Source: Candidatus Poribacteria bacterium
GTDB lineage: Bacteria; Poribacteria; WGA-4E; WGA-3G
Length of the DNA stretch: 53,261 bases
Assembly (NCBI GenBank): GCA_022822215.1
Contig: JAJECD010000218.1
Coordinates: 1 to 53,261, forward strand
Direction of reading: 5' to 3'
Part shown: positions 5,983-32,979 of the stretch, one piece after another
Numbering within the stretch: position 1 is the first letter of the stretch
Layout: each line of letters opens with the position of its first letter
The notes under the pieces: model-generated
What the model was told of the DNA's origin: nothing
What the model saw: the letters and a program-made list of their open reading frames with translations, nothing else
Database searches by the model: none
Program-made: the position numbers and the translations under genes

Positions 5983-6052
5983 ACTATAGTCCTTATTAAG
6001 ATTAACTGGCAGACCTTTTTGTATGGGATGGCGAGATTAGGAGGGAAATTTT

Positions 6053-6877: not shown

Positions 6878-6915
6878 TTTCTCTTGGTACGACACCGATA
6901 CTGGGAGCGTAAGCG

Positions 6916-17847: not shown

Positions 17848-18846
17848 TTAATTATACCCTAATTCTTCCATAATTTCATAGAAAATTAAAGCGATTTCTG
17901 GGTGAATATCAAACGGTTTTCGTGCCGGGACGGGATGCAACGTCTGTCGTGCGTATGCTTGAAATGTAGCATCTGTTGGCAGCTCACAGAAATCGCATAA
18001 CGCTGCAAGCACTTCGTCTGGTTTTGCTGTTAAATCCTCAAAACGGACGAGATGCGTACAATCCGGGGAGGTCTCCATTAGACGGATCCCTGCGCGCATG
18101 GTGACGATCCATTCTACTGCCGCTCTGTCCAAGTGTCGCTCGAAATGTTCTATTTTATCGGCAACTTCAGAGAGAGCGGGATCTGTTTTGACGAGTTGTT
18201 CGACTAAGAGTCGCCACTTCCGGTCTTCGACCCCCCACCAGTCGTGTTTCTCTCCGTTGCGATGAACCCCGAGTCGCTTTGACCAAGTTGCGATGGATTG
18301 ACACGTATCCCATCCGTTACGGACAAGAAAAACAAAGCGTGCGTCGGGGAATATGGCACGCACGAAATCTACTCTGAAGATGAGTTCTGGATATTTGTCG
18401 ACGAGGCGTTTTGAACGGGTTGTTGACAGATAGGCACCGAACATCTGGGTGGCACGGTGGCGCATTTCGTCTGTCGCATCTTCTGCGGTGAGACGGTATT
18501 TTGCGTGGCTTTGGCTGTAGTTTCCGATGACATCTTCATGCGGATGAATGAGGTGCCATATCGCTTTGGGTTCGTTGAGATAACCGACCTCTCTGTGCAT
18601 GGAGAGGACGATGCCGAGTATTGTGGTACCGCTGCGTCCGGTCCCTAAGATGAAGATCGGTTTTTTAACGGGTTTGTATTTACTATTGTTTGCGGCGACC
18701 TTTTTCAGGATGGAAAAGACGAGCGGATTTATCCAACGTCCTTTTGTCGTCACGGGTCGTCCTTCAAAGAAGGCGTAACTCATGAGGCGTGTTAGGACCT
18801 TCGTCGGGCGGGTTTTGATGTAAAGTGGATTTATTTGTGCAATCAT
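17848..18846 (-). CDS. Sulfotransferase family protein
   Basis: PAPS 5'-phosphosulfate loop ILGTGRSGTT; downstream FLVRNGWDTCQS; 332 aa. Confidence 0.75.
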   Translation of the reverse strand: MIAQINPLYIKTRPTKVLTRLMSYAFFEGRPVTTKGRWINPLVFSILKKVAANNSKYKPVKKPIFILGTGRSGTTILGIVLSMHREVGYLNEPKAIWHLIHPHEDVIGNYSQSHAKYRLTAEDATDEMRHRATQMFGAYLSTTRSKRLVDKYPELIFRVDFVRAIFPDARFVFLVRNGWDTCQSIATWSKRLGVHRNGEKHDWWGVEDRKWRLLVEQLVKTDPALSEVADKIEHFERHLDRAAVEWIVTMRAGIRLMETSPDCTHLVRFEDLTAKPDEVLAALCDFCELPTDATFQAYARQTLHPVPARKPFDIHPEIALIFYEIMEELGYN

Positions 18847-18982
18847 TTTTTAAGCTATTAAATATGGTCACTGCTCCACTATGTTTCGCAGTGGTTTTCA
18901 GCGAGTTTCGACCTGCTTTGGGTGTTTGAAGGTTTCTGCCTTCACGGGAAACCATCGTTTTAAACGGAAGTACAGATCAGAT

Positions 18983-20020
18983 TTAATCGTTAAAAACTCT
19001 TCTTTTTAGGGTTTGGGGGATACTCTTCATGCGATCAAGGTTAAAAAGGAACGCCCCTCCCAATTTTACGGGAAACGTTAATAGATGAAGTATCAAACTG
19101 GCGATATTCGGCTGAATTGACACGGGACTGTAGTTATGTTTCTTCATAAGGGCTGCGGTTATGGTCTGATTGAGATAAATTTCAGCGGAACTGAGTTCGC
19201 CTTTTTGCCAACTGTGGGCACGATGTGGGTTTATTCCCAATTCCTGCGGTTTGTCTTCTGCGACGGAAGAACCTACCTGTGGGACTTGGAGCATTGTATT
19301 GGTATATGAAATATTGGCGAAGTCACAGACTGCTTTGACGGTGGCTTCTGGATGTGTAAGAAGTTCCTCAAAGTAGATAGAAATGACCCGCTCATGATTT
19401 GCAAACTGATCTGCAGCGTTGACAGCGGTCCGCCAGATGTGGCTGATGGTGATTGGGTGATAATTGACCCAATCGCGAAACGTTTCTTTTATCGGCATAT
19501 CGCTCCCGCCAAGGAATCGGCGTTTCCACTTCCGCTTTTGGGATAACAGGACATCGCGCGGATCTCGGATCATGTTGATAATTCGTGCCTCTGGATAAAG
19601 CTCAAGGATGTCCTTGATGTAAAATACATTGCGCGGTGTTTGATCGCAGGGAATAGTTTTGTCGTTTTCGGCTGCTTCATGATGGAGAAATGCTAAGAAG
19701 AGGCGTGCTGGTGTTTCAGGATATACGGTTAGACTGTCAAGAAATATTTCTGCCTCTTTTAGGAAACGACGCGGGTTTCCCTGTGTGCGGTAACCTTCCC
19801 GTTGGACGCAGCAGAGTGATGCTGCGAGTTTTGATGTGTTTATTTTCGGCAGTTCAGATGAAAAGGGTGGGGCGCATAACTGTCCAAAGAAATGGAGTTC
19901 ACCAAAGGTATAAACGTCCGGATGTTTTCCTAAGATGCGTCCCATCATCGTTGTGCCACTGCGACTGTTACCAACAACAAATACCATGTTTTTAACTATT
20001 AAATCTGGGCATCGTTCCAC
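18983..20020 (-). CDS. Sulfotransferase family protein
   Basis: VVGNSRSGTTMMGRIL (5'-PSB) and IRDPRDVLLS (3'-PB). Confidence 0.8.
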   Translation of the reverse strand: MERCPDLIVKNMVFVVGNSRSGTTMMGRILGKHPDVYTFGELHFFGQLCAPPFSSELPKINTSKLAASLCCVQREGYRTQGNPRRFLKEAEIFLDSLTVYPETPARLFLAFLHHEAAENDKTIPCDQTPRNVFYIKDILELYPEARIINMIRDPRDVLLSQKRKWKRRFLGGSDMPIKETFRDWVNYHPITISHIWRTAVNAADQFANHERVISIYFEELLTHPEATVKAVCDFANISYTNTMLQVPQVGSSVAEDKPQELGINPHRAHSWQKGELSSAEIYLNQTITAALMKKHNYSPVSIQPNIASLILHLLTFPVKLGGAFLFNLDRMKSIPQTLKRRVFND

Positions 20021-20104
20021 TACATTCCACGATGGTATTTGATGAATTCCAACGCGACTGGGAAGATGTACTTTCTAAGCGGATAGGGACAAGACCTATC
20101 CTGA

Positions 20105-21802
20105 CTATCTCTTTATACTGAGGATGCCAAAACTATTTTTAGGGGTGACGAGTTCTGTCGTTTTTCCTGACCATTCCTGAATGCGTACTTCGATTTCGCC
20201 AGAGCCTTCCATTTCGGCATTGCCCCCGTTTGTTGCCTTGAGTCTTTCATCGGCGACATAACGATACGTGACATCACCTTTGTAATGTTTGCCATCAATC
20301 ACGATTTGTGGCGTGTGTTGTTCACCTGTGCGATTGCTGATGAAGACGGCGAGGTATTCCGTTTCATTTGCGTCATTTTTCTTACCAACGGCTTGTGCCT
20401 GGATACCGGGCATCTGTTGCTTTGCATAAGTGATAGCACCTTCAAAGCGGGGTGGGTTTTTGATTGACACGGTGAACTGTGTGTCTGCTTGCGCGAATGC
20501 TTCGCCGATGAGTTGGAAAGTAGGATAGACGGCGCGCCGGATGGTGTTACCGAAATCTGATTTTGGTTCGCCACCGTATTTCCAAAAGGTTCCGGGGGTC
20601 GGAGGCGTTATCGGGGAAAATACAGGAAATCCTTTACCGGGCCCAGCGATGACATGAAAGTTCGCTTGTGTGATATTAGGTATCGTTAGCATTTTTAGGA
20701 AAAAATCGCCAGCAAACATTGCATGAAGTTGTGTATTGGCGACGCGGTTCGCAGGGTTCGCGATGTTCCATTCGGTTATCCACATCTCCTTGTTTGGAAA
20801 AAGTTTCTGATAGTAGTCGAGAGCCTCTGCGACCCCGAAATGAATCCATCCCATGAGGTAGTGCCGCATCTCCTCTATCTCTTTTTTCTGAACTGCTTTG
20901 TAGGCATAAGCGTGAACGGTGTAAGCGTCGTAAAAACTGCTGTCCGCTGCAAGCCCTTCGTCCCATTTCCGTTGCTGTCTTTTTACCAACCACCCTTCTT
21001 TGTGGAAGCCGAGAGGCGTGGCACAGACGGATACTTTTATGTCGGGGTTAACAGCTTTCATCGCTGCGGCGTGTTTCTTGGCTTCGGCGATGTAGTTTTT
21101 GACTGTTTGGTATTTGTTGAGATAGTGTGGCAGATAATACTCGTTGCCGAGTTCCCAGTGTGTAATGTGATACCCTTTGCTTTTGGCGTAGCCGACCCAT
21201 GCTGCGCTCTCTTCTGGGCTGCCTGTCCATAGATTCACGACAACAACAGGGGTTATCTGTAGTGTGTTACACAACTGCATGAAATCGTCAAAATCGATTT
21301 TACCGTTTCTTCGCTCCTGAAGTTTAACGTAATTGTCTTTGTTTCGTTTATTAAGTTTTGGATTGAGCGTTGAGTCCATTTCATTCTGAAAAAAGCCGCT
21401 GTGTTCCCAATGGTAGAAGTTACCTACCGTACCCCCTGGAAACCGTAAGGTCTTCGGCGCGAGTGCTTTGGTTAAGTTAACAAAATCGGTATCAAGGTAA
21501 CCATAATCACCGCTTATCATGTTTGTATTGAACCCATAGAGTGCGTGCCGGAGCGGTTGCGTCGTGCGTGTGTCAATCTCTAAGCGGAGTGCATCAGGTG
21601 GTGGTGCTTGCTCTCGACAGCCGATGTTCAGAGACAATAATATCGCAACGGCTATCAGCGGTTTGTAAATAGCGGATAACAGATAGTAGAGATAGGGGTT
21701 CTCTGCCCGTTGGTCAGGGGGTTGGGTAACCCAACCCCTACGATGGATAATGGAGATTCTGTATAGCAACCCCCATCGGGGCGACTTATGTGATGTATTC
21801 AT
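20105..21802 (-). CDS. Clan GH-A glycoside hydrolase lipoprotein (GH79/GH51/GH39-like)
   Basis: LRFPGGTVGNFYHW; WELGNEYY (acid/base NE); WITEWNIA (nucleophile). Lipobox-like LSLNIGC. The start ATG overlaps the upstream stop (ATGA). A REP-like hairpin is embedded in the N-terminal extension. Confidence 0.7.
   Translation of the reverse strand: MNTSHKSPRWGLLYRISIIHRRGWVTQPPDQRAENPYLYYLLSAIYKPLIAVAILLSLNIGCREQAPPPDALRLEIDTRTTQPLRHALYGFNTNMISGDYGYLDTDFVNLTKALAPKTLRFPGGTVGNFYHWEHSGFFQNEMDSTLNPKLNKRNKDNYVKLQERRNGKIDFDDFMQLCNTLQITPVVVVNLWTGSPEESAAWVGYAKSKGYHITHWELGNEYYLPHYLNKYQTVKNYIAEAKKHAAAMKAVNPDIKVSVCATPLGFHKEGWLVKRQQRKWDEGLAADSSFYDAYTVHAYAYKAVQKKEIEEMRHYLMGWIHFGVAEALDYYQKLFPNKEMWITEWNIANPANRVANTQLHAMFAGDFFLKMLTIPNITQANFHVIAGPGKGFPVFSPITPPTPGTFWKYGGEPKSDFGNTIRRAVYPTFQLIGEAFAQADTQFTVSIKNPPRFEGAITYAKQQMPGIQAQAVGKKNDANETEYLAVFISNRTGEQHTPQIVIDGKHYKGDVTYRYVADERLKATNGGNAEMEGSGEIEVRIQEWSGKTTELVTPKNSFGILSIKR
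21718..21741. repeat. GTAGG-type palindromic element inside a CDS N-terminus
   Basis: Minus strand reads GTAGGGGTTGGGT-t-ACCCAACCCC. It differs from the 2662 copy by compensatory C/T changes in both arms. Confidence 0.7.
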
Positions 21803-23160
21803 AGGGTGATCTTCAAAGGTCTATAGGTTGAAAGCGATCTGTCGCTGGCGAACATGAGACCAGCGCAGAGCCAGAAATAGAATCCGTAACCTCGGAATTC
21901 AAGGGTTCGATTGAAAAAGAGTAAGAAGGCAGTAATGACAACGAGGCAGAGCATAATAATTGAGATTTGTCGGGTCAGGCGCGACACAGCCAATGGTGTG
22001 TTAACAGATTTCCTGTAAAGGTCTAAAGCGGCACGGAAGAGTCGGTAGAATATTAGCGCGAAAAAACCGAGTCCCAATAAGCCGTAGAAACAGAGGATTG
22101 CGACCCAATACACGTCCTTGAAACCGTTTTTGCTGAGTATTTTCAAGAGGAAAGAACGTTGGCTGGCATTCAGTTTTTCAATCGTGGTATTTTGATCTGC
22201 GCCGTAGCCTAAGATGGGTTTGTTCACAAGGACTGTTGGAACGTTTCCGATTAAGGCACCGAGTCGTTGTTTCTGTGCGACACGGACGTAGGAACCCGAG
22301 AATACGCCAGTTACGTTGCCGATAAGTCCTACCCTTGCTTTACGGGGGTTTATGTACTCAAGGTTAAAAGGGTTGACGATTGCTAAAAGGATCCCAAAGA
22401 CCATCGCGATTGATAATGCTAATTGCAGTGTCTTTTTCCAGCCGTACTGAAAGTAGAACCATGCGCCTCCGGCAAGGAGTGCCGAGAAGGTAGCCGCTCG
22501 TGAGTATGAGCGGGCGATAAAGAAGAACAGTATCGCCGCGCCGAGCAGATTCAGGTACTCCAGTCGTCTAATACGGGAGAGGTAGATGACAAGGACGAGG
22601 ATCATGAAAACCCCGTAAATCACCGTGTCGCCTAAAGTTCCGTAGACGCTCCCAATTTCTCTGCCGAGTTCAAGGAGTCTGTATTCTTTTGTGAACCCAC
22701 CTATGGTAAGTGTGGTTTCGCGCGGTAGGAAGAAATTGAATGCGGCGGGTCCACCCGCCCACTGGATGATACCTGCCCCGATTTGGAAGATACCGACACC
22801 AAGGATTATGCGTAAAAAAGTCGCAATTCGTTTTTCTGAGAGGTTGGAATTTGCGATAAGATAGAAAAGAACGATGAATCGCGCGAATGGACGGATGTTG
22901 TAAAGGCTCCCTATCAGTGGGGATCCATTGACTAACATTGACAGCAGTACGACGCTGTAAAAGCCGATAATTGGTAAGTCGATTGCTGTTTTGACGAAAG
23001 GGATGCCTCTGTAGAGTTTATGGATAACGAGTTTCCCGAAAGCCACGTAGATGAGCATCTCGCCGAAGAATCTTAAGTAGGAGTAAAGGGCATCGCTAAC
23101 GGGTAAAAACTTCAGTATAAACTCTTCAAAAGCGACGTATCCTGTCAGAAAGTAAATCAT
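21799..23160 (-). CDS. O-antigen polymerase/ligase-like (Wzy-type) polytopic membrane protein
   Basis: 453 aa, 10 or more hydrophobic helices with one larger loop, located in a glycan locus. Confidence 0.65.
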   Translation of the reverse strand: MIYFLTGYVAFEEFILKFLPVSDALYSYLRFFGEMLIYVAFGKLVIHKLYRGIPFVKTAIDLPIIGFYSVVLLSMLVNGSPLIGSLYNIRPFARFIVLFYLIANSNLSEKRIATFLRIILGVGIFQIGAGIIQWAGGPAAFNFFLPRETTLTIGGFTKEYRLLELGREIGSVYGTLGDTVIYGVFMILVLVIYLSRIRRLEYLNLLGAAILFFFIARSYSRAATFSALLAGGAWFYFQYGWKKTLQLALSIAMVFGILLAIVNPFNLEYINPRKARVGLIGNVTGVFSGSYVRVAQKQRLGALIGNVPTVLVNKPILGYGADQNTTIEKLNASQRSFLLKILSKNGFKDVYWVAILCFYGLLGLGFFALIFYRLFRAALDLYRKSVNTPLAVSRLTRQISIIMLCLVVITAFLLFFNRTLEFRGYGFYFWLCAGLMFASDRSLSTYRPLKITL

Positions 23161-23221
23161 ATTTTATTCGCTGTTAGCGGTTGGCTATTCGCTATCCGGC
23201 ATTTGTGCTAATTGCTATCTG

Positions 23222-24214
23222 CTATCCGCCACACCAAGCGGAGAGATCTCTGTTCAGTAATTCAGCTAATTGTTCGTTAAACGGCTTGAAGTATGCCATC
23301 TGTTGTTTGCGGGTTTCTGGATCCAGCGGTGGCGGTGTCCAGTTCTTATCCTTCTGAGGTTTTTCGCTCCAATTGAGGACGGCTTTTCTGAGTTTGTAAG
23401 CGGCTGCGTCCGGCACAAGTTTCCTTATGGCTTTTCTGAGTGGATTGTGAGATGCGAGGAATTGTGTGAAGAGGAAGTTGAATCCTTCCGAACGCGGCAT
23501 CGTGGCTTGATTGTGTCGTTCCCCTATTGCAGGTTTGAAATCAGCGGGGATCCGCATGTGATTGAAAACCTGTTGGCAGACGGCTTCAGCGTTTTCCTTC
23601 AAATCGTCAGTTAAGAAGCAGTGGACACGATCTGAGCCGAATTGCTCTATCAAATTCTTGATGTGTGGGTAGTAGATACCGTTGTACTGATAAGCACACT
23701 GTCTCCATTTAAACCGGTCTTCGTTCAGGCGTGCTTCCTCAGTGGCGAGTGCTGCTTCGTAGGTTTTGATGTTTTCCCAACCTCTCCGGCGTGCCCACCA
23801 ATAGGCGGAATAGGCACGGGCAACGGGTTCCCGCAAAAGAACGACGAGATGTGCCTCTGGATTGTGTTCGTAAATCCGTTGCATAACTTCTGGGAAGTGC
23901 ATCACCATCACGTTCTTAGCGATGAGTTGTTTATCCTCAATTTCCTCGTCGGGCCCTTCGCCTGCAAAGTATTTCGCGAAAGCCCGTTCATACCCTTGTG
24001 TGTATTCGTGTTCTTGAAGGAAAAAGGTCATCTCTGACTGTGGATGCGTATGAATATCTGGATGTTGTGCCAAGTAGCGGAGCAGTGAAGATGTACCCGA
24101 TTTTTGCGCTCCGACAATCATTAACTGGATTCTTTTAGTCATAATTTTTTGCCAATGTGGGGGTTGGAAAGATGGAAGGGCGGAAGGATAGGGCCCAGTT
24201 TTCCAATTTTCCAC
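23222..24214 (-). CDS. Sulfotransferase (Sulfotransfer_1-like)
   Basis: MIVGAQKSGTSSLLRYL and LLREPVARAYSAYWW. GTG at 24214 or ATG at 24142 as the start. Confidence 0.8.
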   Translation of the reverse strand: MENWKTGPYPSALPSFQPPHWQKIMTKRIQLMIVGAQKSGTSSLLRYLAQHPDIHTHPQSEMTFFLQEHEYTQGYERAFAKYFAGEGPDEEIEDKQLIAKNVMVMHFPEVMQRIYEHNPEAHLVVLLREPVARAYSAYWWARRRGWENIKTYEAALATEEARLNEDRFKWRQCAYQYNGIYYPHIKNLIEQFGSDRVHCFLTDDLKENAEAVCQQVFNHMRIPADFKPAIGERHNQATMPRSEGFNFLFTQFLASHNPLRKAIRKLVPDAAAYKLRKAVLNWSEKPQKDKNWTPPPLDPETRKQQMAYFKPFNEQLAELLNRDLSAWCGG

Positions 24215-24247
24215 CCCCTGCTCTCCCGTCCAAAATTCTCATAGAAA

Positions 24248-25168
24248 TTAAAGAGACCAGGGTAAAGGTTTCCTAATGCGTTCACTGAGGGCATGAATAT
24301 CGGATTTGTAATAGTCGGTTAAACGGCGTTGTGTCTCTTCTGACATCTGAATTTTCTTATCAGGTTGCGTGTTTAGACGGAGGTAAAGCGGTTCAATTGT
24401 TTTTCTGATTCTCCGCAGCGGTGTATGGACAATCGGTTTGTTATGTGTCCACCGTCGGAGTCGGAATCGGAAGTCTCGATATTTCCGATGCAGTTCGGAG
24501 TTTCTCATGTTCTCGGAACGGTTTGTTACTTTAAAGGCGTAGTTGCTATAAAAATCGGCATCTATCCCGGCGAAGTTGCACAATTCTGTCATGATGTTCA
24601 ACGGTTGTGCCGCGAGTTCTTCATAAAAAAGGATGTGGATGCGTGCCGGACCGAATAGATTAAAATAGGGTTCCAAATAGATAGTATAGCAGCCCTGTTG
24701 GAGTGTTTGCAAGTATTGTTCTTCCTGCTGCCCAGCGGCAAAGAGCAGATCGACGTAAGCGTCGAAACTTAGTGTTTCTGGTAATTTGCCGATTTGCTTT
24801 GCGAACCGATACCAAGAGATGAGTCTTGAGATGGGTTCGCGCAGGCTGAAGACTAACTTCGCGTGTGGTAGCGATGCTGCGATTCGTTCACGCGCCTTGT
24901 CGCAATAGAGATAGTCTGGTGTTGATTCAACCCGTAGCTGCTTTTCATCAGTGTTGGGGAATAGGTGGTTGTACGTTTCCACATCGCCTTTGTATCGGTA
25001 TTTTGAAGGGAGTGGATAATCGGTGTTGAGGAAGAAACGGGTTTCTTTATAGGTAGCAGCGCAAATAGCCGGATGGTCGGCGAGATAGGTGAATAGTGAC
25101 GTTGTTGCCGCCTTCGTTGTGCCGCCTACAATAAGATAGTGGTAATCTGCAACGTTTTTCATAACCAT
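24248..25168 (-). CDS. Sulfotransferase (Sulfotransfer_1-like)
   Basis: LIVGGTTKAATTSLFTYL and SLREPISRLISWY. Confidence 0.75.
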   Translation of the reverse strand: MVMKNVADYHYLIVGGTTKAATTSLFTYLADHPAICAATYKETRFFLNTDYPLPSKYRYKGDVETYNHLFPNTDEKQLRVESTPDYLYCDKARERIAASLPHAKLVFSLREPISRLISWYRFAKQIGKLPETLSFDAYVDLLFAAGQQEEQYLQTLQQGCYTIYLEPYFNLFGPARIHILFYEELAAQPLNIMTELCNFAGIDADFYSNYAFKVTNRSENMRNSELHRKYRDFRFRLRRWTHNKPIVHTPLRRIRKTIEPLYLRLNTQPDKKIQMSEETQRRLTDYYKSDIHALSERIRKPLPWSL

Positions 25169-26575
25169 TTAAAACCAAGAAACCTTTGTCTTTCGGAGGA
25201 GGCGCGTCAAGTTTCCGACAGCGAGTAGTGCGGTGATTGGGACGGCGAGTGCGACCCCTGTGAGTCCCCTTATTTCAATCAATCCATACGCCGCAATGAA
25301 ATTAAGAAACGCCATCGTTACCATGTTTGCGAAGATGGCTTTGTAAGCCTTTTGTGCGTAAAGTCCGGCATTCAGTATGGGTATCAGACATGAAAATATC
25401 AATCCTGCGCTGAGCCAAAAGAGGAGTTGTCCAATTAATTCGATAGAGGCTTGATCGGTCGTGCCTCTCCCATACAAGATCCAACTGATTTTTCCGTGGA
25501 ATATCAGCAGGATTAGGATGACTGGAGTGCCGATGATTATGGCGGTGCGTACATTTCGGTTGAGCGTGTGTCCTAATTTCTTTTTATCGTTTGCTGCGTG
25601 GTCTGTTGCCATATCGGGCAGCCCTGTTGTTGCAATGCTAATCCCGATGAGTGTTTGTAACGCCGAGAAAATCTGGAAAGCAGATTTATAAAGTGTAATC
25701 GCGCCGCCTCCGAGTTGCGAGACGAGGTATATCTCGACCAACAGACGGTTTGTGACTTGTCGAATTGCGAAACCGAGGGTTGGTAAGGTGACCGTGTTCT
25801 TCAAAGCGCGGAGTGTGTCTACAGAGATGCCTGTGAGGGTATACCGATGTCCCGTTCGATACGTTCCGATACACAACCCTCCGAAGTATATGGCAAAGCC
25901 GCCGGTGTATGCTACCGCAATCCAGTTTTCAAGGTTCTCGGTGTTCCATAGGACTAAAAATATAACCGCTGCGGTGCCAGCAGGTAGCGCGTTTCGGAGT
26001 GCTACCGTTTTAAAGCGTTGTTGGCTGTTCAGGAAGGCACCGAGGACGGTGCTACCGGATCCGAAGACAAGGATCGGCGCACAGAGTCGTAACAGGGTTG
26101 TTCCTTTTTCGACATCAACGGTCGATCTCGCTAATAGTCCGCCTGCTATCCACGGCGCGAGAAGTTCGATTAGGATAAAAATTCCGAATCCGATACTTAT
26201 TAAAGCGAACAGAAGGCTATTGGTGAAATATTGGTATTCTGCGCGAGGCATCTCCTTTTCACGTGTAACAAAGAGGGGGACAAGGCTAAATTTAGCACCT
26301 TCTCGGACAATTGTATCAACAACGAACACGATCGTCAATGCGGTTATCAGCGCGTCTGCTGTATCGCTGAAGCCGAACCGTCTTGGGATTAACAGGACAC
26401 GGACGAGGAGGCTCAATCCCATGCCAGCACACGTAATTACCATTACCCAAAGGGTTTTGTAACGGTTGTCGGTTGTCGGTTGTCGGTTGTTGGTAACTCC
26501 TTGTGGCTGTTGCGTATTTCTTGATGCCATAGTGGTCGCAAAGTTTGCAAGTTCAAGTAGCCGATGGCTATTCAC
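25169..26575 (-). CDS. MOP-superfamily flippase (MurJ/Wzx-like)
   Basis: About 12-14 TM helices. LLVRVLLIPRRFGFSDTADAL resembles the MurJ N-terminus. GTG at 26575 overlaps the upstream stop. Alternative ATG at 26442 (MVITCAG..). Confidence 0.7.
   Translation of the reverse strand: MNSHRLLELANFATTMASRNTQQPQGVTNNRQPTTDNRYKTLWVMVITCAGMGLSLLVRVLLIPRRFGFSDTADALITALTIVFVVDTIVREGAKFSLVPLFVTREKEMPRAEYQYFTNSLLFALISIGFGIFILIELLAPWIAGGLLARSTVDVEKGTTLLRLCAPILVFGSGSTVLGAFLNSQQRFKTVALRNALPAGTAAVIFLVLWNTENLENWIAVAYTGGFAIYFGGLCIGTYRTGHRYTLTGISVDTLRALKNTVTLPTLGFAIRQVTNRLLVEIYLVSQLGGGAITLYKSAFQIFSALQTLIGISIATTGLPDMATDHAANDKKKLGHTLNRNVRTAIIIGTPVILILLIFHGKISWILYGRGTTDQASIELIGQLLFWLSAGLIFSCLIPILNAGLYAQKAYKAIFANMVTMAFLNFIAAYGLIEIRGLTGVALAVPITALLAVGNLTRLLRKTKVSWF
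26463..26490. repeat. Perfect heptanucleotide tandem repeat (CGGTTGT)x4
   Basis: cggttgt cggttgt cggttgt cggttgt. Lies between the two candidate flippase start codons. Confidence 0.95.
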
Positions 26576-27609
26576 TTCCAGCTATCGGGTAGATTTTTAT
26601 GAATTTCGATGTTGGTGAACGGGCTGGAGGTCCGTGGTCCTACAGATTTTGCCCAAGCCGCCATTCTATTCAAGCCCTCTGGAAGTTCGACCTGCGATGT
26701 GTTTCCGAAGACACCGTGAAATTTTTCGTGTGAACAATAGGCGTGTTTCACCTCTTCTCTGGCGCGTACATTGATAACACTCACCTCTTTTCCCATTGCT
26801 GTCATCACCATATCCGCCAATTCGTTGACAGTCACGTATTTATCGGAGCCGACGTTAAATACTGCTCCCGATGCTTCCGGGATATCCACGGCGCGAGCGA
26901 TATGTGGGGCGACATCTGCAATATGCGTAAAGGCACGCGTCTGCTCTCCGTCTCCAAAAATTACTAAAGGTTCCTCTTGCATGATGTTGTTCATGAAAAT
27001 GCCGATGACGTTTCGGTACTTATCCCCAATGTTCTGGAGTTCACCGTAGACGTTGTGGGGTCGGAAGATGGTATATTCCAAGCCGAAGAGCCGTTTAGAG
27101 ACGGCGAGTTCCTGTTCTACAGCGTATTTGGCGATACCGTAAGAATCTTCCGGCATCGGTTGAAGTCCTTCATGCATTGGCAGCTGGTTTTCACCGTAGA
27201 CAGCGATAGACGAGGTGAACACAAAGCGTTTAACGTTATGGTTTACGGCGGCGTTTATAAGGTTTACACTGCCGATGAGGTTGTTCTGATAGTTGAATCG
27301 TTTGATAAAGTGGCTCAATCCCTCTGCCGCATAGGCAGCGAGGTGATAGATATAGTCGAATTGATGCTGCTCACAGAGTTGGTTTATCAGCGCAACGTCA
27401 AGAATGCTGCCTTCAACAAAGGTTACGTTTGAATTGAGATTTTCACGGAAACCGCCGCTGAGATCGTCAAGTGCGACGACCTCTGTGTCTCCTTGGCGGA
27501 GAAGTTCGTTAACGACGTGCGTGCCCATAAAGCCCGCACCGCCTGTAACTAATGCTTTCTTCTTCATAATATAGTTTTCAGTTTTCCTACAGAAATTGTT
27601 GATAGACAT
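26572..27609 (-). CDS. NAD-dependent nucleotide-sugar epimerase/dehydratase
   Basis: KKALVTGGAGFMGTHVV Rossmann motif and YGIAKYAVE (YxxxK). The likely true start is the ATG at 27567 (MKKKALVTGG). Confidence 0.85.
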   Translation of the reverse strand: MSINNFCRKTENYIMKKKALVTGGAGFMGTHVVNELLRQGDTEVVALDDLSGGFRENLNSNVTFVEGSILDVALINQLCEQHQFDYIYHLAAYAAEGLSHFIKRFNYQNNLIGSVNLINAAVNHNVKRFVFTSSIAVYGENQLPMHEGLQPMPEDSYGIAKYAVEQELAVSKRLFGLEYTIFRPHNVYGELQNIGDKYRNVIGIFMNNIMQEEPLVIFGDGEQTRAFTHIADVAPHIARAVDIPEASGAVFNVGSDKYVTVNELADMVMTAMGKEVSVINVRAREEVKHAYCSHEKFHGVFGNTSQVELPEGLNRMAAWAKSVGPRTSSPFTNIEIHKNLPDSWK

Positions 27610-28792
27610 TCATAATTCTTTCATAGTGAATGTCGGCGTTAAATTCCGTTTCCATTTTGTCGCGACCGATGCGTCCCATTTCTGCAGCATCGTCTTTATG
27701 CTCGAACATCCACAGTAGCCGGTCTCGTAGTGTTTCTGGTTCACCCGATGGGACGAGAAATCCGTCAACGCCGTCTACGATGAGCTCTGGGATTCCACCG
27801 ATATCGGCACCGATGACGGGTTTACCGTAGGCATAAGATTCTAAGACGGACATTGGACAGTTTTCGTACCACTCTGAGGGTAGGACTGTGCAGATGCTGT
27901 TCCGAATAAGTTCGCGGAGTTCGTCGCCCTGCTTAAAGCCGAGCAGGTGGATATGTTTGCATCCGTTTTGTTCGATGATCTGTTGGACTTCTGACATCGC
28001 TTCACCATCACCAACGATATAGATCGGAAGGTCCGTAAGGGGGAGGGCTGCCTCTATAAGCGTCAGGATGCCTTTGCTCCGATGCACCCGTCCGAAATAG
28101 AGAATATAATTCCCTTCGGAGAAGTTCGGAGTGATGTCGGAGACATCGACGAAGTTGTGAACGGTCGAGATTTTATCTTCAGGCATACCGTGAGAAATCA
28201 TCTTTTTTCGGAGGAAATGGGAGACCGAGATGAAATGGTCAAACTTCTTAACGGCACCAAGCATCTTAGAGACGTAAGACTCGGTAACACTCAACGCCGT
28301 GCGAGCGAGTGAGCCTCTATTGCATCGCTTTGGAAGGGCGCGCCAAAAGTGTTTGCCTTCGCATGCCTCGCAGATCTGGTCGTTTGAGAGATGGCTGTAG
28401 ACGGGGCAGGTGAGCTTGTACTCGTGTAATGTCTGAATAAGCGGAATTCCGTCTCTTTTGAGGACTTCCAAGATTGAGGCGGTGAGTTTACCGTAATAGA
28501 TATGGAAGTGTGCGAGGTTGATGTCTGTGTCCTTTAACAGCTGTCGGATTGATTTAACAGCGTCATGTGAATACAAAAAACGGAGTAAGTCTCCTGCGCC
28601 GGGATGCTCGAAGTCCGCGCCTCTTGGGAAATAGTTTTCCCATTCAGACGGCTCGTTATTAGGACTGGCTGCTGTAAATGGGACAACTTGGTGTCCGTGC
28701 TTTCGTAACAGTTCAGCAAGGGTGAAGAAGTACCGGTCAGAACCACCACGGACATGGTAATTTTGTGAGACGTTCAGGATTGTACGTTTCAT
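27587..28792 (-). CDS. GT4 glycosyltransferase (group 1)
   Basis: GT-B fold features: ..GRVHRSKGILTLIEA.. and LPSEWYENCPMSVLESYAYGKPVIGADIGGIPELI (E(x)7E). Confidence 0.85.
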   Translation of the reverse strand: MKRTILNVSQNYHVRGGSDRYFFTLAELLRKHGHQVVPFTAASPNNEPSEWENYFPRGADFEHPGAGDLLRFLYSHDAVKSIRQLLKDTDINLAHFHIYYGKLTASILEVLKRDGIPLIQTLHEYKLTCPVYSHLSNDQICEACEGKHFWRALPKRCNRGSLARTALSVTESYVSKMLGAVKKFDHFISVSHFLRKKMISHGMPEDKISTVHNFVDVSDITPNFSEGNYILYFGRVHRSKGILTLIEAALPLTDLPIYIVGDGEAMSEVQQIIEQNGCKHIHLLGFKQGDELRELIRNSICTVLPSEWYENCPMSVLESYAYGKPVIGADIGGIPELIVDGVDGFLVPSGEPETLRDRLLWMFEHKDDAAEMGRIGRDKMETEFNADIHYERIMNVYQQFL

Positions 28793-28870
28793 CGGTAATG
28801 TCTCCTTTTAGGATTATAAGTTATAAGTTAAGAGATTTTCCGTTACTCTAAACCTCATAACCGATAACCA

Positions 28871-29809
28871 CTAATTACTATCTAACAGTGTTGGATATGG
28901 GAAACCTGCATCGGCAATTCGTTCGTCTATGAATGGTTCGTAATAGACGGTTCCAACTTGTTTGGTAATCAACTCTCGATCGGTGGCATCTATGATGACA
29001 TTGGCTATTTCTGTAGCGTCTGAATTGCCCCACCAATTGTTGCTCGCTGTCAGGTTGAACTTTACATTTAGCCGGAGTGCAAAGATGTTTGCATTCAGGT
29101 TGTTGTTTTGGATGATAGACTGGACATTTTCACAGAAGATGCCGATCTCATTTTTGGTGATATTGTTTTTTTCGATCTGCGGACGTGTTTGGCGACCGAT
29201 GGTTCTGATACCGGTGTTATTGTCAAGAATATCGTTATGTTGGATCTGCGCGTCGCTGCCATCTAAAGCGATGGCGATTTCGTTCAGACGCAGTGTGCAC
29301 TCCGTCACAGTCGGCGAGGTTGTTTTGATGTCCAGTGCGGTTGTGGCATACTCGATGACCGTGCCTCTGATGAAGCTTTCTAAGTCGTGTGTGTGATCGA
29401 AAAGGATACCGTTCCAATCCGCGGGTGCTGGTTTGATGTTCTCCGATGTGAGATGGACAAGTTGGGTTACTTCTTCTTGTGCTAACGGGGTTCCGACCTT
29501 TAGAATACCTCTCACTGTCAGTAGGGCATTTCGTCCAAATTTGACGGTGGTACCGGGCGAGATGTTCAGAGTTACATTCTGTGGAATCTCCAGCGTGCCC
29601 TTCACGATGTAGGTCTTTTCAGGTGTCCACGTTTCGTTTTCGGTGAGTTGATGGTTTTCAAGGACGACCTCGGTGCTTTCTGTTGGGTCTACGGGGTTGG
29701 TGGTATTTTCTGTTGTGCAGCCTATGCCTATGGTTAAGTTAAGGCAGAGGATTAGCAGGCAATGTCTTAAGTGTCGAATTTTCATTTTCGTGTGTACAGG
29801 TTTAATCAT
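28871..29809 (-). CDS. Lipoprotein with right-handed parallel beta-helix (PbH1/NosD-like) repeats
   Basis: Lipobox LTIGIGC. Repeated ..I.HNDILDNNTGIRT.., ..IEKNNITKNEIGIFCEN.., ..IIQNNNLNAN.. units. Confidence 0.65.
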   Translation of the reverse strand: MIKPVHTKMKIRHLRHCLLILCLNLTIGIGCTTENTTNPVDPTESTEVVLENHQLTENETWTPEKTYIVKGTLEIPQNVTLNISPGTTVKFGRNALLTVRGILKVGTPLAQEEVTQLVHLTSENIKPAPADWNGILFDHTHDLESFIRGTVIEYATTALDIKTTSPTVTECTLRLNEIAIALDGSDAQIQHNDILDNNTGIRTIGRQTRPQIEKNNITKNEIGIFCENVQSIIQNNNLNANIFALRLNVKFNLTASNNWWGNSDATEIANVIIDATDRELITKQVGTVYYEPFIDERIADAGFPYPTLLDSN

Positions 29810-30165
29810 ATCGTGATGTAGAATAAAACGCTATTTTGTAGGGTTTGTTGCAAATTGTGTGGATTTTCATTAATATTTCTGGATATGAGGAAACATTGTT
29901 CAGAATTTGTTGAATCGAACGAGTCTTCATATTCCGGTTTACCGTTTCGTTAGTATTCACGTTGTTCTTTAAAGGCTCGGTGCAGGAAATAGACTGTAGA
30001 GATGCCGAGACCGATGAGGATAAAGAGGATAACAATCGCGGTACCGAGGCGATTTTTGATTGCGTGTCAGTTTGGATTTCGGGACATCGCGGTAGGAAGA
30101 TGAGTCCTGTTTTTTCTTATCCAAGCTGTGTAAAATTTTGAGGTTGCTGCTGAGAGAGCGTTCGT

Positions 30166-31035
30166 TTACGAACCTGCTACAGGGATAAGGGATCCAATTT
30201 TCCTTTTCACGGGGCGCCCCTGTTTAATGAAGTTGACATCTTTAATTCCCATCGTATTTAACCAAGTAGTCCAATACGTTTTGATAATCTCAAAGTCTTG
30301 TAGGTAAGGAACGCCAGAACCTTTATCGTTCCGAAGAGCAATACCAGCCATTAAGAATTTCACATTGTAAGAGCTGAAATCACTTCCTATAGGCAATAAG
30401 CCTTCGTTTCCTTGTATTTTCTCTTTCCAATGCGGATCGTTCCGTAATTTGCTAACTTTCATAGATGTTCGTTTAGCACGTTTGGCTTTGATGTTTTTAT
30501 CAAAATCAAGGTAGCCGTCGGAAAGGCAGATGATAATATTCTGATAATCTTCAAAGAAGTAATCCTCTGCTTCATATTTAAACCATTCCCAGATGTCTGA
30601 ACCTGTTTGTTGGTGTTTATTAGCAAATTCGTATAATTTGGGAATTGTTTGTAGGACTGAATCCTTTTGCTCCATGAACTCCGGATAACTGCGTCCTGTT
30701 CCCGAGTCCTCAATCGTTAGTTTCTCCATGATCTGCCGTGGAATTGAAGGCGCTGTTGGCTGATTTGGAATAACAAAAGAGAGACGGTGTGGATATTGAA
30801 TGACTTCGCTTACTGCTAAATGAGCTTTAACAAGTTTGTCAAATTGGGTGACAACCTCTGTGATAATTTCGAGGTCCCTCGCTACTTGATCCGGATGTTT
30901 CGTTTCAGAAATACGATCTGACGTATCAATGACTACAATGACATTTACACCACCTTTAGATGAGGGGAAAGCCTCTCCATTTAATAAACAGAAAAGTACC
31001 ATCCATACAACTATAATTTTTTTTCCTTTTTGCAT
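30166..31035 (-). CDS. Exported VWA-like (Rossmannoid) protein, third gene of a three-gene operon
   Basis: Signal peptide MQKGKKIIVVWMVLFCLLNGEAF. VNVIVVIDTSDRISE and IIICLSDGYLDF resemble VWA strands beta1 and beta4. The MIDAS site is incomplete. No family recognised with confidence. Confidence 0.4.
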   Translation of the reverse strand: MQKGKKIIVVWMVLFCLLNGEAFPSSKGGVNVIVVIDTSDRISETKHPDQVARDLEIITEVVTQFDKLVKAHLAVSEVIQYPHRLSFVIPNQPTAPSIPRQIMEKLTIEDSGTGRSYPEFMEQKDSVLQTIPKLYEFANKHQQTGSDIWEWFKYEAEDYFFEDYQNIIICLSDGYLDFDKNIKAKRAKRTSMKVSKLRNDPHWKEKIQGNEGLLPIGSDFSSYNVKFLMAGIALRNDKGSGVPYLQDFEIIKTYWTTWLNTMGIKDVNFIKQGRPVKRKIGSLIPVAGS

Positions 31036-31046
31036 ATAAATCTCCG

Positions 31047-32600
31047 TTACGTTCTATTATCCGTGTATTTTTTAACCGTGTCGTCTTTTAAATCTTGGAT
31101 GTCTTGAATGTGTTCACGAACATCGGAAGGTAACTCAGCTTTACTTTGTGTAACATACCGACACCATCCGCTCACAAACTCATTTACTTGTGCTTCTAAT
31201 TTCTTTACGTCAACGATCTGTTTATCGAAAGAGTCTAATAAGTCGGCAATCTCGGTTTCGCACCGATTAATTTCCTTTTGAAAACTCTCTACTTTTTCAT
31301 TCTGTTCCTTAATCTGACTCAGCAAGCTTTCTCTTTCCGTGGTTAAGCGTGCAATTTCTGCCTGAATAGGTTGTTTATGATTATGTGTAAGGATTTCCAG
31401 CTCCTGTTTGGAAGATGTCTCAATGCTATTTTCGTAGTCCATTTTTTCCTGTACTAATTTACCGACCTTTCCTTTCAAATGCTCTATCTCAGTCGCTAAA
31501 ATAGCCTTCTGAACCATACGCTCATTCTGTTCTGTTCTTTTTATTTTATCCAAGTATTGAGCTTGGACTTCATCTTCGGGTGGGTTTGCTTTTTTCCACA
31601 TTTTTAAAACAAAATGTATGCCGAAACTAAGAAATACTGAAACGGCAAAGCCTAATAATAAAACCGAGAGAATTTCTAACCAATTATCCTGCCACAGATA
31701 CTCTCCTGACTCTAATCCTCTGGCCACTTTGCTTTCATATATATTCTGCGAAATCTTGTATGCAATGACTCCATCAAGTAGTAGAGTAGACAAACCCAAC
31801 CCTAAAACTCCGAACCACCACCAACCTCCGTTTTCTAAACAGAAGTGTATTAGAATTGCGAGCATCAAAAAAATTATGGGAAAGGCAAGGATAAACAAAT
31901 TTTTAGATTCCCACGCGTTAAACAAAGCGAAAGGATTAATGAATTCGTTTAACCTTTGTTCAACAGTTCCACTACCTGCTGTGAATGCTTTATCTCCTGC
32001 AGCACTATAAAAAATAAAAAGATAAAAAACCAGTCCAAAGAGTGCAATAGTGGCGAAACCAGCAAAAATATACTCAGGAATAGAGAAACGTGAAACTGAA
32101 GTTTTGTTAAGATTCGGTGGTTTTAACTCTGATTCAGTTGGTGCCTCCAAATCAGTTTCAAGACCGGCAAACGTTACCTGTTTTTCTTCTAATACTGTAG
32201 TCCGCTCATCAATTTTGTCTTTCAAGGCATCAAGGCGAGGATCCGGGGACGGAGGATCAGCAGCCATCGGAACCTCTAATTCCACCTGGAGTTTAACTAA
32301 CTCTGTGTCTTTCTCAGAAAGGTTTTCTTTTAATGTTTTGATGTCATCCAGTCTATCCAGTTTCTGTTGTTCAAGTCGTTCCTTGTCTACATTCAACCAC
32401 TCTATTTTCTCTTTGGTCTGTGAGTGGCTTATTCCACTTGTCAGTTCCTCATTACGGATAATAATATCAAGGTGGTTTTGTAATGTGTTTGTAACTCCTC
32501 TATTCGCCGCTGCACAAGCAAATCCATTATCAGCACTATGATAAGGCGTACCGTTGAAACCGAGATCTGCACCATTTCCATGGTTATCATTCATAAACAT
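31047..32600 (-). CDS. 517-aa membrane protein: coiled coil, 4 TM helices, coiled coil
   Basis: Heptad-rich charged N-terminal (~60-170) and C-terminal (~345-500) regions flank four hydrophobic helices (IFAGFATIALFGLVFYLFIFY; LFILAFPIIFLMLAILIHFCL; WWWFGVLGLGLSTLLLDGVIAY; ILSVLLLGFAVSVFLSFGIHFVL). Overlaps the upstream gene by 14 nt. Confidence 0.6.
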   Translation of the reverse strand: MFMNDNHGNGADLGFNGTPYHSADNGFACAAANRGVTNTLQNHLDIIIRNEELTSGISHSQTKEKIEWLNVDKERLEQQKLDRLDDIKTLKENLSEKDTELVKLQVELEVPMAADPPSPDPRLDALKDKIDERTTVLEEKQVTFAGLETDLEAPTESELKPPNLNKTSVSRFSIPEYIFAGFATIALFGLVFYLFIFYSAAGDKAFTAGSGTVEQRLNEFINPFALFNAWESKNLFILAFPIIFLMLAILIHFCLENGGWWWFGVLGLGLSTLLLDGVIAYKISQNIYESKVARGLESGEYLWQDNWLEILSVLLLGFAVSVFLSFGIHFVLKMWKKANPPEDEVQAQYLDKIKRTEQNERMVQKAILATEIEHLKGKVGKLVQEKMDYENSIETSSKQELEILTHNHKQPIQAEIARLTTERESLLSQIKEQNEKVESFQKEINRCETEIADLLDSFDKQIVDVKKLEAQVNEFVSGWCRYVTQSKAELPSDVREHIQDIQDLKDDTVKKYTDNRT

Positions 32601-32979
32601 TCCTCCTATTTGGGGCCGATGTTCTACGACTCACCCGATTTTCCACTGAGTCCGCCATTTTCTGGAAACGCGTTAGAAACTGTGATGTCCACTTCCGCCA
32701 ACCGGGAACCTCCAGTTCCTGTAGCAATTGATAAGCCTCCTCAGCTGGATACTCGAAAAATTCCCGGTTTTTGTTAACACGGTGCTGCTTCAGCTTTCTA
32801 TGCATTTCAACTTCAAGTTGCTCATGATTGTCACACGGAAACTCATACGCGACCTTGAACGGTTTTGGGACCCCTGTTTGATAGAGTTCATCTGCTCGTT
32901 CGCGTGCGGTTTTTGTAGTATGCCCGATCTTTATTAGGCCCGGCATGGCTTCATTCGTCAAGATATAGACACAACCCAT
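32587..32979 (-). CDS. T5orf172 / MUG113-type GIY-YIG-like domain protein
   Basis: GCVYILTNEAMPGLIKIGHTTKTARERADELYQTGVPKPFKVAYEF...EVEMHRKLKQHRVNKNREFFE matches the T5orf172 signature (YIL..IKIG.T....R..EL...GVP.PF.V...E..lH..l...R....EFF). Confidence 0.75.
   Translation of the reverse strand: MGCVYILTNEAMPGLIKIGHTTKTARERADELYQTGVPKPFKVAYEFPCDNHEQLEVEMHRKLKQHRVNKNREFFEYPAEEAYQLLQELEVPGWRKWTSQFLTRFQKMADSVENRVSRRTSAPNRRNVYE

Follow-up and report, generated by a model that had tools for sequence, protein, structure and literature searches.

Few bacterial pathways to sulfated polysaccharides have been proven, namely those of synechan and of a Vibrio capsular polysaccharide (CPS). Synechan is made by Synechocystis sp. 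PCC 6803, where the xss cluster on the plasmid pSYSM was tied experimentally to a sulfated exopolysaccharide (EPS) (Maeda et al. 2021, PMC8205485). In the marine, invertebrate-associated Vibrio sp. KMM 8419, a chemically proven sulfated CPS goes together with three sulfotransferase (ST) genes in the biosynthetic region (PMC11641403). The marine PVC-group bacterium Pontiella sulfatireligans F21 breaks down sulfated glycans with its many sulfatases and also makes sulfated glycosaminoglycan (GAG)-like exopolymers, and its putative sulfated GAG cluster has a PF13469 sulfotransferase in glycosyltransferase-rich surroundings (PMC7356697). Poribacteria have been discussed as consumers of host sulfated glycans, since they carry numerous sulfatases and glycoside hydrolases (PMC8546597), and in the literature searched we found no paper on sulfotransferases or sulfated polysaccharide synthesis in this group. 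Here, we analyzed a stretch of 53,261 nucleotides from a Candidatus Poribacteria bacterium (GenBank assembly GCA_022822215.1, contig JAJECD010000218.1; "the window" means this whole stretch, and all coordinates refer to it). Judging from its gene content, the gene cluster at 17848-29809 and its flank probably encode a Wzx/Wzy-dependent pathway with which this sponge-associated poribacterium makes a surface polysaccharide that has several O-sulfate groups per repeat unit.

A sulfated-polysaccharide pathway had been suspected here from the sequence alone (hereafter the original prediction), and several lines of evidence support this reading. Four divergent sulfotransferases (ST_A to ST_D) with intact motifs for the sulfate donor 3′-phosphoadenosine 5′-phosphosulfate (PAPS) are situated between Wzx, a Wzy_C-superfamily protein and glycosyltransferases. 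Furthermore, the gene order is kept in five genera, PAPS supply genes are present in this genome or in its genus, and in other phyla the sulfotransferases are again found beside glycosyltransferases. A six-frame listing of open reading frames (ORFs), combined with Pfam and NCBIfam scans, gave ten ORFs of at least 100 amino acids between 17848 and 29809, all on the minus strand and all intact. The gene classes named in the original prediction were all recovered at their positions and on this strand, but its count of twelve genes was too high, and its own list also sums to ten. It had furthermore placed a priming transferase, a DUF1972-type glycosyltransferase and a Wzi-like gene (9408-13214) upstream, whereas they are transcriptionally downstream of the sulfotransferases. 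The true extent of the locus is about 9043-29809, which includes one inserted cargo gene. A scan of 11200-30300 for promoters and terminators gave counts at or below shuffled expectation and thus was uninformative on operon structure.

Wzx/Wzy loci with sulfotransferases are already known as a kind of system. What is new here is the restriction of the locus to one family, its conservation per residue, the fold of its hydrolase and the tie of its Wzy-like protein to Wzy_C, as well as the explicit orthology to loci of other phyla, the existence of cultured carriers and a planctomycete sister group. A synthesis pathway that is strongly conserved across the lineage would add a producer side to the sponge symbiosis and point to a concrete molecule by which host and symbiont may recognize each other, and its enzymes might be used to make sulfated glycans enzymatically.

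The resemblance to synechan lies in the dependence on Wzx/Wzy, in sulfotransferases that stand among glycosyltransferases and in an outer-membrane exporter that is encoded elsewhere (PMC8205485). However, the synechan cluster has two sulfotransferases to eight glycosyltransferases, with roughly 2 sulfates per 8 sugars, whereas the poribacterial locus has four to three glycosyl-transfer enzymes, a ratio from which a heparin-like charge density would be expected. The xss cluster has a linked co-polymerase and regulators, and it lacks a hydrolase, a beta-helix protein and Wzi, all of which occur in the poribacterial locus; the latter is also fixed across its lineage, unlike synechan. A test for orthology was negative, in that the best match of ST_C to a sulfotransferase of the pSYSM xss region has 22.8% identity (E = 2e-7) and the gene content differs. 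The two clusters work alike, but they are different cluster families.

The differences to the other systems are of a similar kind. In Vibrio sp. KMM 8419, export is by an ABC transporter (Kps), cysDNC lies inside the locus, and the locus is strain-specific rather than lineage-wide (PMC11641403). P. sulfatireligans F21, which we compared by its description, has one sulfotransferase and eight glycosyltransferase family 2 or 4 (GT2/GT4) genes and shows mostly N-sulfation, with no Wzy, hydrolase or Wzi described (PMC7356697). With the group 1 capsules of E. coli and Klebsiella, the locus shares Wzx, a Wzy-like protein, a priming transferase of the Bac_transf family and the Wzi family, and Wza-like and Wzc-like proteins are encoded in the genome. 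It differs in that Wza and Wzc are encoded elsewhere, its presumed polymerase is highly conserved instead of serotype-variable, and sulfotransferases and an exported hydrolase are added.

The four sulfotransferases

The four enzymes fall into two Pfam families. ST_A (24248..25168, minus strand) and ST_B (23222..24214, minus strand) are of the heparan-sulfate 3-O-sulfotransferase (3-OST)/NDST-like class and match Sulfotransfer_1 (E = 3.6e-12 and 3.5e-11; 46.7 and 43.4 bits against a cut-off of 22). ST_C (18983..20020, minus strand), which is TPST/NoeE/CurM-like, and ST_D (17848..18846, minus strand) match Sulfotransfer_3 (E = 1e-29 and 2.8e-26; 104.8 and 93.6 bits against a cut-off of 27). The original prediction had reported a 5′-phosphosulfate-binding (5′-PSB) loop in each of them, and these loops are indeed present as TKAATTSL (ST_A), QKSGTSSL (ST_B), SRSGTTMM (ST_C) and GRSGTTIL (ST_D). 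The three clear 3′-phosphate-binding (3′-PB) motifs that it had noted are likewise found, as REPISRLIS in ST_A, REPVARAYS in ST_B and RDPRDVLLS in ST_C, while ST_D has a looser version, RNGWDTCQS.

In order to evaluate conservation, we took orthologues of each enzyme from 80 related loci, which gave 77-79 sequences per enzyme. The loci were collected with the Wzy-like protein and come from Candidatus or uncultured Poribacteria, among them the WGA-3G single-cell genome, and from two assemblies labeled "uncultured bacterium"; all counts over relatives are samples of related, non-independent genomes. The 5′-PSB and 3′-PB motifs of all four enzymes are invariant or nearly so, and the Arg and Ser of the 3′-PB motif are invariant in all four, the patterns being REPxxRxxS in ST_A and ST_B, RDPRDVLLS in ST_C and RNGWDTCxS in ST_D. 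A loss of the PAPS-binding residues upon proper alignment, which had been named as an outcome that would speak against the pathway, was thus not seen; the residues are present and near-invariant, and the four enzymes look active.

ST_A matches the bacterial structure 3RNL (E = 7.7e-18), NDST (1NST, 1.9e-11) and 3-OST (1T8T, 2.9e-11) in the PDB. Its 5′-PSB loop, GGTTKAATTSL, and its 3′-PB motif vary little or not at all among 79 orthologues, and an acidic residue, E/D81, sits within an (E/D)STPDY motif that resembles the catalytic-Glu motif of 3-OST. ST_B matches 3RNL over its full length (E = 4.7e-32) and 3-OST-1 (3.4e-11), and its two motifs are near-invariant in 78 orthologues; its start is probably Met25, near 24142. 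ST_A and ST_B belong to the same fold family as 3RNL and the animal enzymes (1T8T, 1VKJ, 1NST) and share their PSB loop and 3′-PB motif; ST_A keeps an acidic residue in the motif where 3-OST has its catalytic Glu, which ST_B does not. The match to the animal heparan-sulfate 3-OSTs and the NDST domain reaches only E values of 1e-9 to 1e-11. We also considered heparan-type N-sulfation by ST_A and ST_B and set it aside as unlikely, because the locus lacks an N-deacetylase partner.

The PDB matches of ST_C and ST_D are protein-tyrosine sulfotransferases and CurM, with an E value of 1.6e-7 for ST_C and TPST2. In NCBIfam, both enzymes match the Nod-factor sulfotransferase NoeE (E = 2.9e-8 for ST_C). 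In ST_C, SRSGTT, RDPRDVLLS and Glu41 are invariant in 76-77 of 77 orthologues, and in ST_D the same holds or nearly holds for GRSGTT, RNGWDT..S and Glu92 (79 orthologues). In the alignment, these two glutamates sit 21 residues past the Arg of the PSB loop, which is the same spacing as for Glu99 of TPST2, a residue that we take to be the catalytic base.

None of the four enzymes has a signal peptide or an N-terminal transmembrane segment. ST_C has a hydrophobic C-terminal tail (residues 308-326), which is a possible membrane anchor. Pairwise identity among the four is 21-26% (26% for ST_A/ST_B and 21% for ST_C/ST_D), and each forms a conserved orthologous group of its own. This suggests that they are old, distinct enzymes, which would fit four different specificities. 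Two further Sulfotransfer_3 genes are found in the genome outside of the cluster (contigs C407:12011-12616 and C283:3952-4323); their products have at most 25% identity to ST_A-ST_D.

Genes for assembly, export and processing

The genes around the sulfotransferases are all on the minus strand. The priming enzyme (9408..10124) is a small monotopic phosphoglycosyl transferase (Pfam Bac_transf, E = 3.2e-63) with one strongly hydrophobic segment at residues 65-83, and its gene is syntenic in relatives. Its end is overlapped by the gene of a small DUF983 membrane protein (9043..9429; E = 3.3e-9), which is syntenic in 15 of the 80 loci, where the flank reaches that far, and in relatives G007, G016, G002, G014 and G067. 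Two glycosyltransferases are encoded, a DUF1972-type GT4 (10178..11296; DUF1972 E = 1.4e-11, Glycos_transf_1 E = 5.7e-17) and a GT4 with the retaining GT-B fold (27587..28792; Glycos_transf_1 E = 3.7e-30, Glyco_transf_4 E = 3.1e-20). Next to the latter lies the gene of a nucleotide-sugar 4-epimerase-like protein of the short-chain dehydrogenase/reductase (SDR) type and GalE/WbpP class (26572..27609; Pfam Epimerase E = 7e-53), whose best PDB match is a UDP-glucose 4-epimerase (4ZRM, E = 5.6e-49), although it stays below the NCBIfam cut-off for GalE. Relatives align with this protein from about residue 15, such that its true start is likely Met15, near 27567.

The Wzx-type flippase (25169..26575) belongs to the MOP/MurJ superfamily (Pfam MurJ, E = 1.4e-38 and 133 bits, the cut-off being 27.4; MatE also matches) and has about 10 hydrophobic segments. 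It aligns with its relatives over 431 of 468 residues, and the first ~44 codons are unconserved; the real start is therefore probably at 26530 or ~26443. Inside this unconserved extension, at 26463-26490, the coding strand carries a perfect (ACAACCG)x4 heptanucleotide repeat. Close relatives have three imperfect units at this site, three copies of a CCAAAAC-type heptamer, or no repeat and a short MIKKLLQHKTFWVM start. The 5′ repeat region of wzx is hypervariable, and phase variation is possible.

These start sites matter for the 4-nt overlaps from which translational coupling had been predicted. The ATGA overlap of the wzy and hydrolase genes (21799-21802) is solid and recurs in relatives. However, the GTGA overlap of the epimerase and wzx genes hinges on the unconserved extension of Wzx, and an overlap of 23 nt between the GT4 and epimerase genes likewise hinges on an epimerase start that is probably over-long. 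The wzx and ST_A genes abut with zero gap.

The Wzy-like protein (21799..23160) is polytopic, with eight or more hydrophobic segments, and matches Pfam Wzy_C below the cut-off (E = 1.5e-4). When 1.8 billion representative proteins were searched with a profile, 475 related clusters were found, and of 41 distant family members sampled, 14 match Wzy_C (best E = 9.6e-10), while one alone matches another family. Because distant members match Wzy_C, we regard this protein as a divergent member of the Wzy_C superfamily and presume that it is the polymerase of the repeat unit.

As to export, the Wzi-like outer-membrane protein of the capsule-assembly family (11532..13214) matches Pfam Caps_assemb_Wzi with 77.9 bits (E = 1e-21; the cut-off is 30.1) from position 64 to 379 of the profile, which has 392 positions. 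It has an N-terminal signal-like segment, and its gene is syntenic in relatives at 63-90% identity. This gene favours a retained capsule over a released EPS or an O-antigen-like glycoconjugate. A Poly_export (Wza-like) protein is encoded on contig C189 of the same metagenome-assembled genome (MAG), and Wzz-domain (Wzc-like) proteins are encoded on C254 and C310.

Two exported proteins complete the cluster. The first is a glycoside hydrolase of clan GH-A, similar to GH51 and GH79 (20105..21802), which was classified with an AlphaFold2 (AF2) model and Foldseek. The model (predicted local distance difference test (pLDDT) 78.8, predicted TM-score (pTM) 0.81) shows a (beta/alpha)8 barrel with a C-terminal beta-sandwich, and the top matches are GH51 arabinofuranosidases (E = 6e-24, TM-score 0.57-0.68), followed by a GH79 beta-glucuronidase (E = 1e-16). 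The sequence LGNE221 aligns with the IGNE motif of the GH51 acid/base, and E221 as well as E344, within TEW, are invariant in 80 orthologues; from its motif rather than from superposition, we infer that E344 is the nucleophile. Identity to solved GH51 structures is 12-16%, and the Pfam GH79n match is below the cut-off, so the enzyme may form a separate, undescribed family. It is presumed to trim or release the polymer.

The second is the beta-helix protein encoded by the first gene of the cluster (28871..29809), which is NosD/CASH-like (Pfam NosD, E = 6.4e-7, above the cut-off) and gave no sequence match in the PDB. It has an N-terminal signal-like segment that ends in Cys, and it probably acts in periplasmic or surface glycan binding or processing. 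Its gene is syntenic with the GT4 gene in 20 of the 80 loci, where the flank reaches. Both exported proteins had been labeled lipoproteins, but neither has a canonical lipobox (the sequences are LSLNIGC in the hydrolase and TIGIGC in the beta-helix protein).

Conservation within and beyond Poribacteria

The series Wzx-ST_A-ST_B-Wzy-hydrolase-ST_C-ST_D is collinear in 78 of the 80 loci, and both exceptions are cut by contig ends; this core order is kept across five genera. Of 81 genomes of one family, 79 carry ST_B and 80 carry ST_D, in single copy and almost never disrupted. Neither was found in 39 genomes from seven other Poribacteria families, save one ST_B-like match of 30% identity. On this sample, the locus is family-wide, not phylum-wide. 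The number of Sulfotransfer_3 matches per genome is 3-9 in the family against 0-4 in other families (one genome excepted).

Across the 80 loci, the orthologues that conserve the catalytic motifs (77-80) span 59-98% identity. Mean identity to the proteins of the window is highest for the DUF1972-GT4 (91%), followed by the epimerase and the priming transferase (85% each), the GT4 (84%), the Wzy-like protein (82%, range 73-98%), the sulfotransferases (72-76%), the hydrolase (73%) and Wzx (69.5%). The locus has two variable slots, one between the GT4 and epimerase genes (1-5.7 kb) and one between the ST_D and wzi genes (0.6-5 kb). In the window, the latter is occupied by a gene for a 1346-aa "eukaryote-like" repeat protein with Pfam WD40 and leucine-rich repeat (LRR) matches (13246..17286, minus strand). 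Only a ~98-aa remnant is found there in relative G007, and 17 of the 80 loci have a formylglycine-type sulfatase in this slot. The WD40/LRR gene is an insertion in a variable slot, not a pathway gene.

Beyond the Poribacteria, a distant representative of the Wzy family led us to cyanobacterial loci in Waterburya, Chroococcales and Gloeobacterales MAGs, in which the Wzy homologue has 39-41% identity. Beside it are homologues of ST_A (42-48%), ST_C (51%), ST_D (55-58%), the GT4 (53-55%) and the hydrolase (24-25%). One Waterburya locus, for which a full Pfam pass was made, also carries a DUF1972-GT4, Wzx, a GT2, a response regulator and a sodium/sulfate-symporter-like gene. A search with the ST_D of Waterburya then gave 226 relatives, and orthologues with 52-60% identity to the ST_D of the window were found in at least seven other phyla. 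The carriers belong to the Cyanobacteriota, including the cultured Waterburya agarophytonicola KI4, the Planctomycetota, including the anammox bacterium Ca. Loosdrechtia aerotolerans, the Thermodesulfobacteriota, including the cultured Geothermobacter hydrogeniphilus HR-1, and the Nitrospirota, NC10, Myxococcota, Actinomycetota (Rubrobacter) and several Pseudomonadota. The two cultured carriers make the prediction testable without culturing the sponge symbiont.

We surveyed the neighborhood of ST_D in 33 non-poribacterial loci. The most frequent neighbor was a DUF1972-GT4, mostly downstream and on the same strand (22 of 33 loci, 26-36% identity), followed by the GT4 (18 loci, up to 62%), the Wzy homologue (15 loci, 23-41%), ST_C (11 loci, 50-54%), the epimerase (10 loci, up to 54%), the hydrolase (9 loci, up to 37%), and ST_A and ST_B (6 loci each, up to 48% in both cases). 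The GT4 homologues beside ST_D are 53-62% identical in cyanobacteria, Nitrospirota and Thermodesulfobacteriota. In the Planctomycetota MAG nzgw512, one locus holds all four sulfotransferase types (47, 44, 50 and 56% identity for ST_A to ST_D) together with the epimerase. We regard these cassettes as probable orthologues of the poribacterial locus, not just analogues, although neither the arrangement nor the set of genes is constant: most of the loci carry between one and three of the four sulfotransferase types, a Wzi-like gene is found in one of the 33 and a beta-helix homologue in none. ST_D is the gene of the locus that is most widely conserved across phyla, and an identity of 52-60% is unusually high for a sulfotransferase, which suggests a shared acceptor structure. 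In the literature searched, we found none of these loci characterized. The statement that sulfated bacterial polysaccharides are rare hence needs to be qualified, since related, uncharacterized loci are spread over at least seven other phyla.

In a maximum-likelihood tree of ST_D, Poribacteria form one clade (support 100/100) with two planctomycete sequences as sisters (96/84), and cyanobacteria form one clade with Gloeobacterales in a basal position (95/86). The root is by midpoint only, and we claim neither a donor nor a direction of transfer. A recent transfer from cyanobacteria was considered and rejected, as each phylum forms a separate clade in the tree, the one closest to Poribacteria being that of the Planctomycetota, and the tree has no reliable root. 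Within a sample of 301 cyanobacterial genomes, the cassette occurs in one, whereas it is near-universal in the poribacterial family.

The neighborhoods also bear on the question of whether the sulfotransferases act on a glycan at all. Some or all of them could be mere neighbors of a polysaccharide locus and act on a lipid, a peptide tyrosine or a secondary metabolite, which would be in line with protein-tyrosine sulfotransferases and the polyketide sulfotransferase CurM being the closest solved structures of ST_C and ST_D, and with the number of sulfotransferases exceeding that of glycosyl-transfer enzymes. However, we consider this very unlikely. In 78 of the 80 loci, the four genes and those for Wzx, Wzy and the hydrolase form one intermixed series of fixed order, and NoeE, the NCBIfam match, is a carbohydrate sulfotransferase that acts on the fucose of Nod factors. 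Furthermore, ST_D and ST_C again adjoin the GT4 or DUF1972-GT4 in other phyla, and no genes for polyketide synthases, nonribosomal peptide synthetases or ribosomally synthesized and post-translationally modified peptides are present among the homologues of window genes there. An orthologous cluster that modifies a non-glycan substrate, which the original prediction had named as contrary evidence, was not encountered, as we found no non-glycan context.

The proposed pathway, its alternatives and the surrounding genes

A polysaccharide pathway could proceed as follows. The priming transferase would act on undecaprenyl phosphate at the cytoplasmic face of the membrane, and the DUF1972-GT4 and the GT4 would extend the product to a short repeat unit, which would have three sugars if no unlinked glycosyltransferase helps; the 4-epimerase would supply one of the nucleotide sugars. 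ST_A to ST_D would then modify the lipid-linked unit at up to four positions, with PAPS supplied by two enzymes encoded outside of the locus, a Sat-type ATP sulfurylase and a stand-alone APS kinase. Sulfation would have to precede flipping, because PAPS and the signal-less sulfotransferases are cytoplasmic. Wzx would flip the sulfated unit, and the Wzy_C-superfamily protein would polymerize it. Unlinked Wzc-like and Wza-like proteins would export the polymer, the Wzi-like porin would help to retain it as a capsule, and the exported hydrolase with its GH51/GH79-type fold and the beta-helix protein would trim, release or remodel it. The sequences establish the identities of the genes, the intact motifs, the synteny, the distribution and the PAPS genes of the genus; the sequence of events, when the repeat unit is sulfated, how large it is, whether the product is a capsule or free EPS, and what the two exported proteins do are all inferred.

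Several observations weigh against this assignment. At the position where 3RNL and 3-OST have their catalytic-base Glu, ST_B carries an invariant AKN and no Glu. With four sulfotransferases to three glycosyl-transfer enzymes, some of the former may act on another acceptor. The Wzy-like protein scores 22 bits against the Wzy_C cut-off of 31.7, such that its assignment combines a sub-threshold match with transitive homology; its AF2 model, made with 21 orthologues, has a pLDDT of 40 and is unusable, and sequence and profile searches of the PDB with this protein gave no solved relative. With a mean identity of 82% against the 69.5% of Wzx, it is unusually conserved for a polymerase and would fit a ligase or an oligosaccharyltransferase, too. 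In addition, the Wza-like and Wzc-like genes are unlinked to the locus, and their membership in the pathway is assumed.

The latter points lead to an alternative in which a sulfated oligosaccharide is ligated to lipid A-core, as an O-antigen, or to protein, with the Wzy_C protein acting as a WaaL-type ligase or a PglL-type O-oligosaccharyltransferase. The Pfam family Wzy_C spans ligases, polymerases and PglL-type transferases, and the match here is weak; the degree of conservation is atypical of the serotype-variable Wzy polymerases, both co-polymerase and exporter are encoded elsewhere, and genes for secreted repeat proteins occupy slots inside the locus. There is also a Vibrio strain for which a sulfated O-antigen was proposed (PMC11641403). 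However, the Wzi-like capsule-assembly porin belongs to the conserved locus, a dedicated exported hydrolase suggests a polymeric substrate, and two stronger Wzy_C proteins, which are encoded on other contigs of the MAG, could provide the ligase. We therefore regard the alternative as unlikely and favor a polymerized surface polysaccharide. With regard to the envelope, the window carries lipid A genes at 4696-7719 (a fused LpxC-FabZ of 428 aa, LpxA and LpxI), confirming a diderm envelope with lipopolysaccharide, which bears on an O-antigen.

A further difficulty for the sulfated-polysaccharide pathway concerns the sulfate donor. As the original prediction stated, the window has no genes for PAPS synthesis; they are located elsewhere in the genome or genus. 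The MAG (4.3 Mb in 422 contigs, 84% complete) encodes a stand-alone APS kinase (246 bits) on the 2.4-kb contig C362, which carries no other sulfur gene, but ATP sulfurylase and CysD were not detected in it. The search for cysC and cysDN that had been proposed thus succeeded for the APS kinase, whereas CysD gave no match and CysN gave generic GTPase-level matches only. A search for CysQ gave only sub-threshold matches of the inositol-monophosphatase family. The absence of ATP sulfurylase is best explained by the incompleteness of the MAG, because 29 of 30 genomes from its genus contain a Sat-type enzyme. It could also be taken as a sign that the locus is a decaying or silent relic without a product in this organism, but we give this hardly any credence, because all ten ORFs are intact, the catalytic motifs are invariant or nearly so in 77-80 orthologues, and the sulfurylase occurs in the relatives. 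Moreover, an in-frame stop in ST_B was seen in just two of the 81 family genomes (with a two-piece match in a third), and ST_D had none. The MAG also has 44 sulfatase-family matches; a search for sulfatases had likewise been proposed in the original prediction.

If the polysaccharide is indeed a capsule, a more far-reaching and rather doubtful possibility is that it is heparan-sulfate-like and very densely sulfated, with up to four sulfates per unit of about three sugars, and that it imitates sulfated glycans in the extracellular matrix of the sponge and serves as a badge of "self" in the mesohyl. If this were true, the cell would escape phagocytosis by the host, its own 40-odd sulfatases would spare or edit the capsule, and the secreted eukaryote-like repeat proteins and sulfatases encoded in the slots would act on or with it. 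The locus would then be the poribacterial branch of an old sulfoglycan pathway that crosses phyla, and this pathway could explain unassigned "sulfated GAG-like" polymers from anammox granules and other biofilms.

Beside the cluster, at 30166-32979, lies a module with a T5orf172 nuclease-like protein, a 517-aa coiled-coil membrane protein and a 289-aa exported protein. It is an islet of lower GC content (39% versus about 47%) that is also found next to the cluster in relative G007, at 42-59% identity, and is absent in three other relatives. Further on, the window encodes a Pnkp/Hen1 RNA-repair gene pair at 34369-38348 (PNKP ligase domain E = 4.9e-178, Hen1_L E = 5.4e-112). A 1039-aa protein at 42678-45797 combines a Type ISP restriction-modification coupler, an N6 methylase and C-terminal specificity domains, with no helicase or nuclease domain among its Pfam matches, and a DUF6785/DUF6784 membrane protein follows at 45878-47806 (E = 1e-152). 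At the other end of the window, 472-1563 encodes a five-blade Kelch-repeat protein and thus another eukaryote-like repeat gene.

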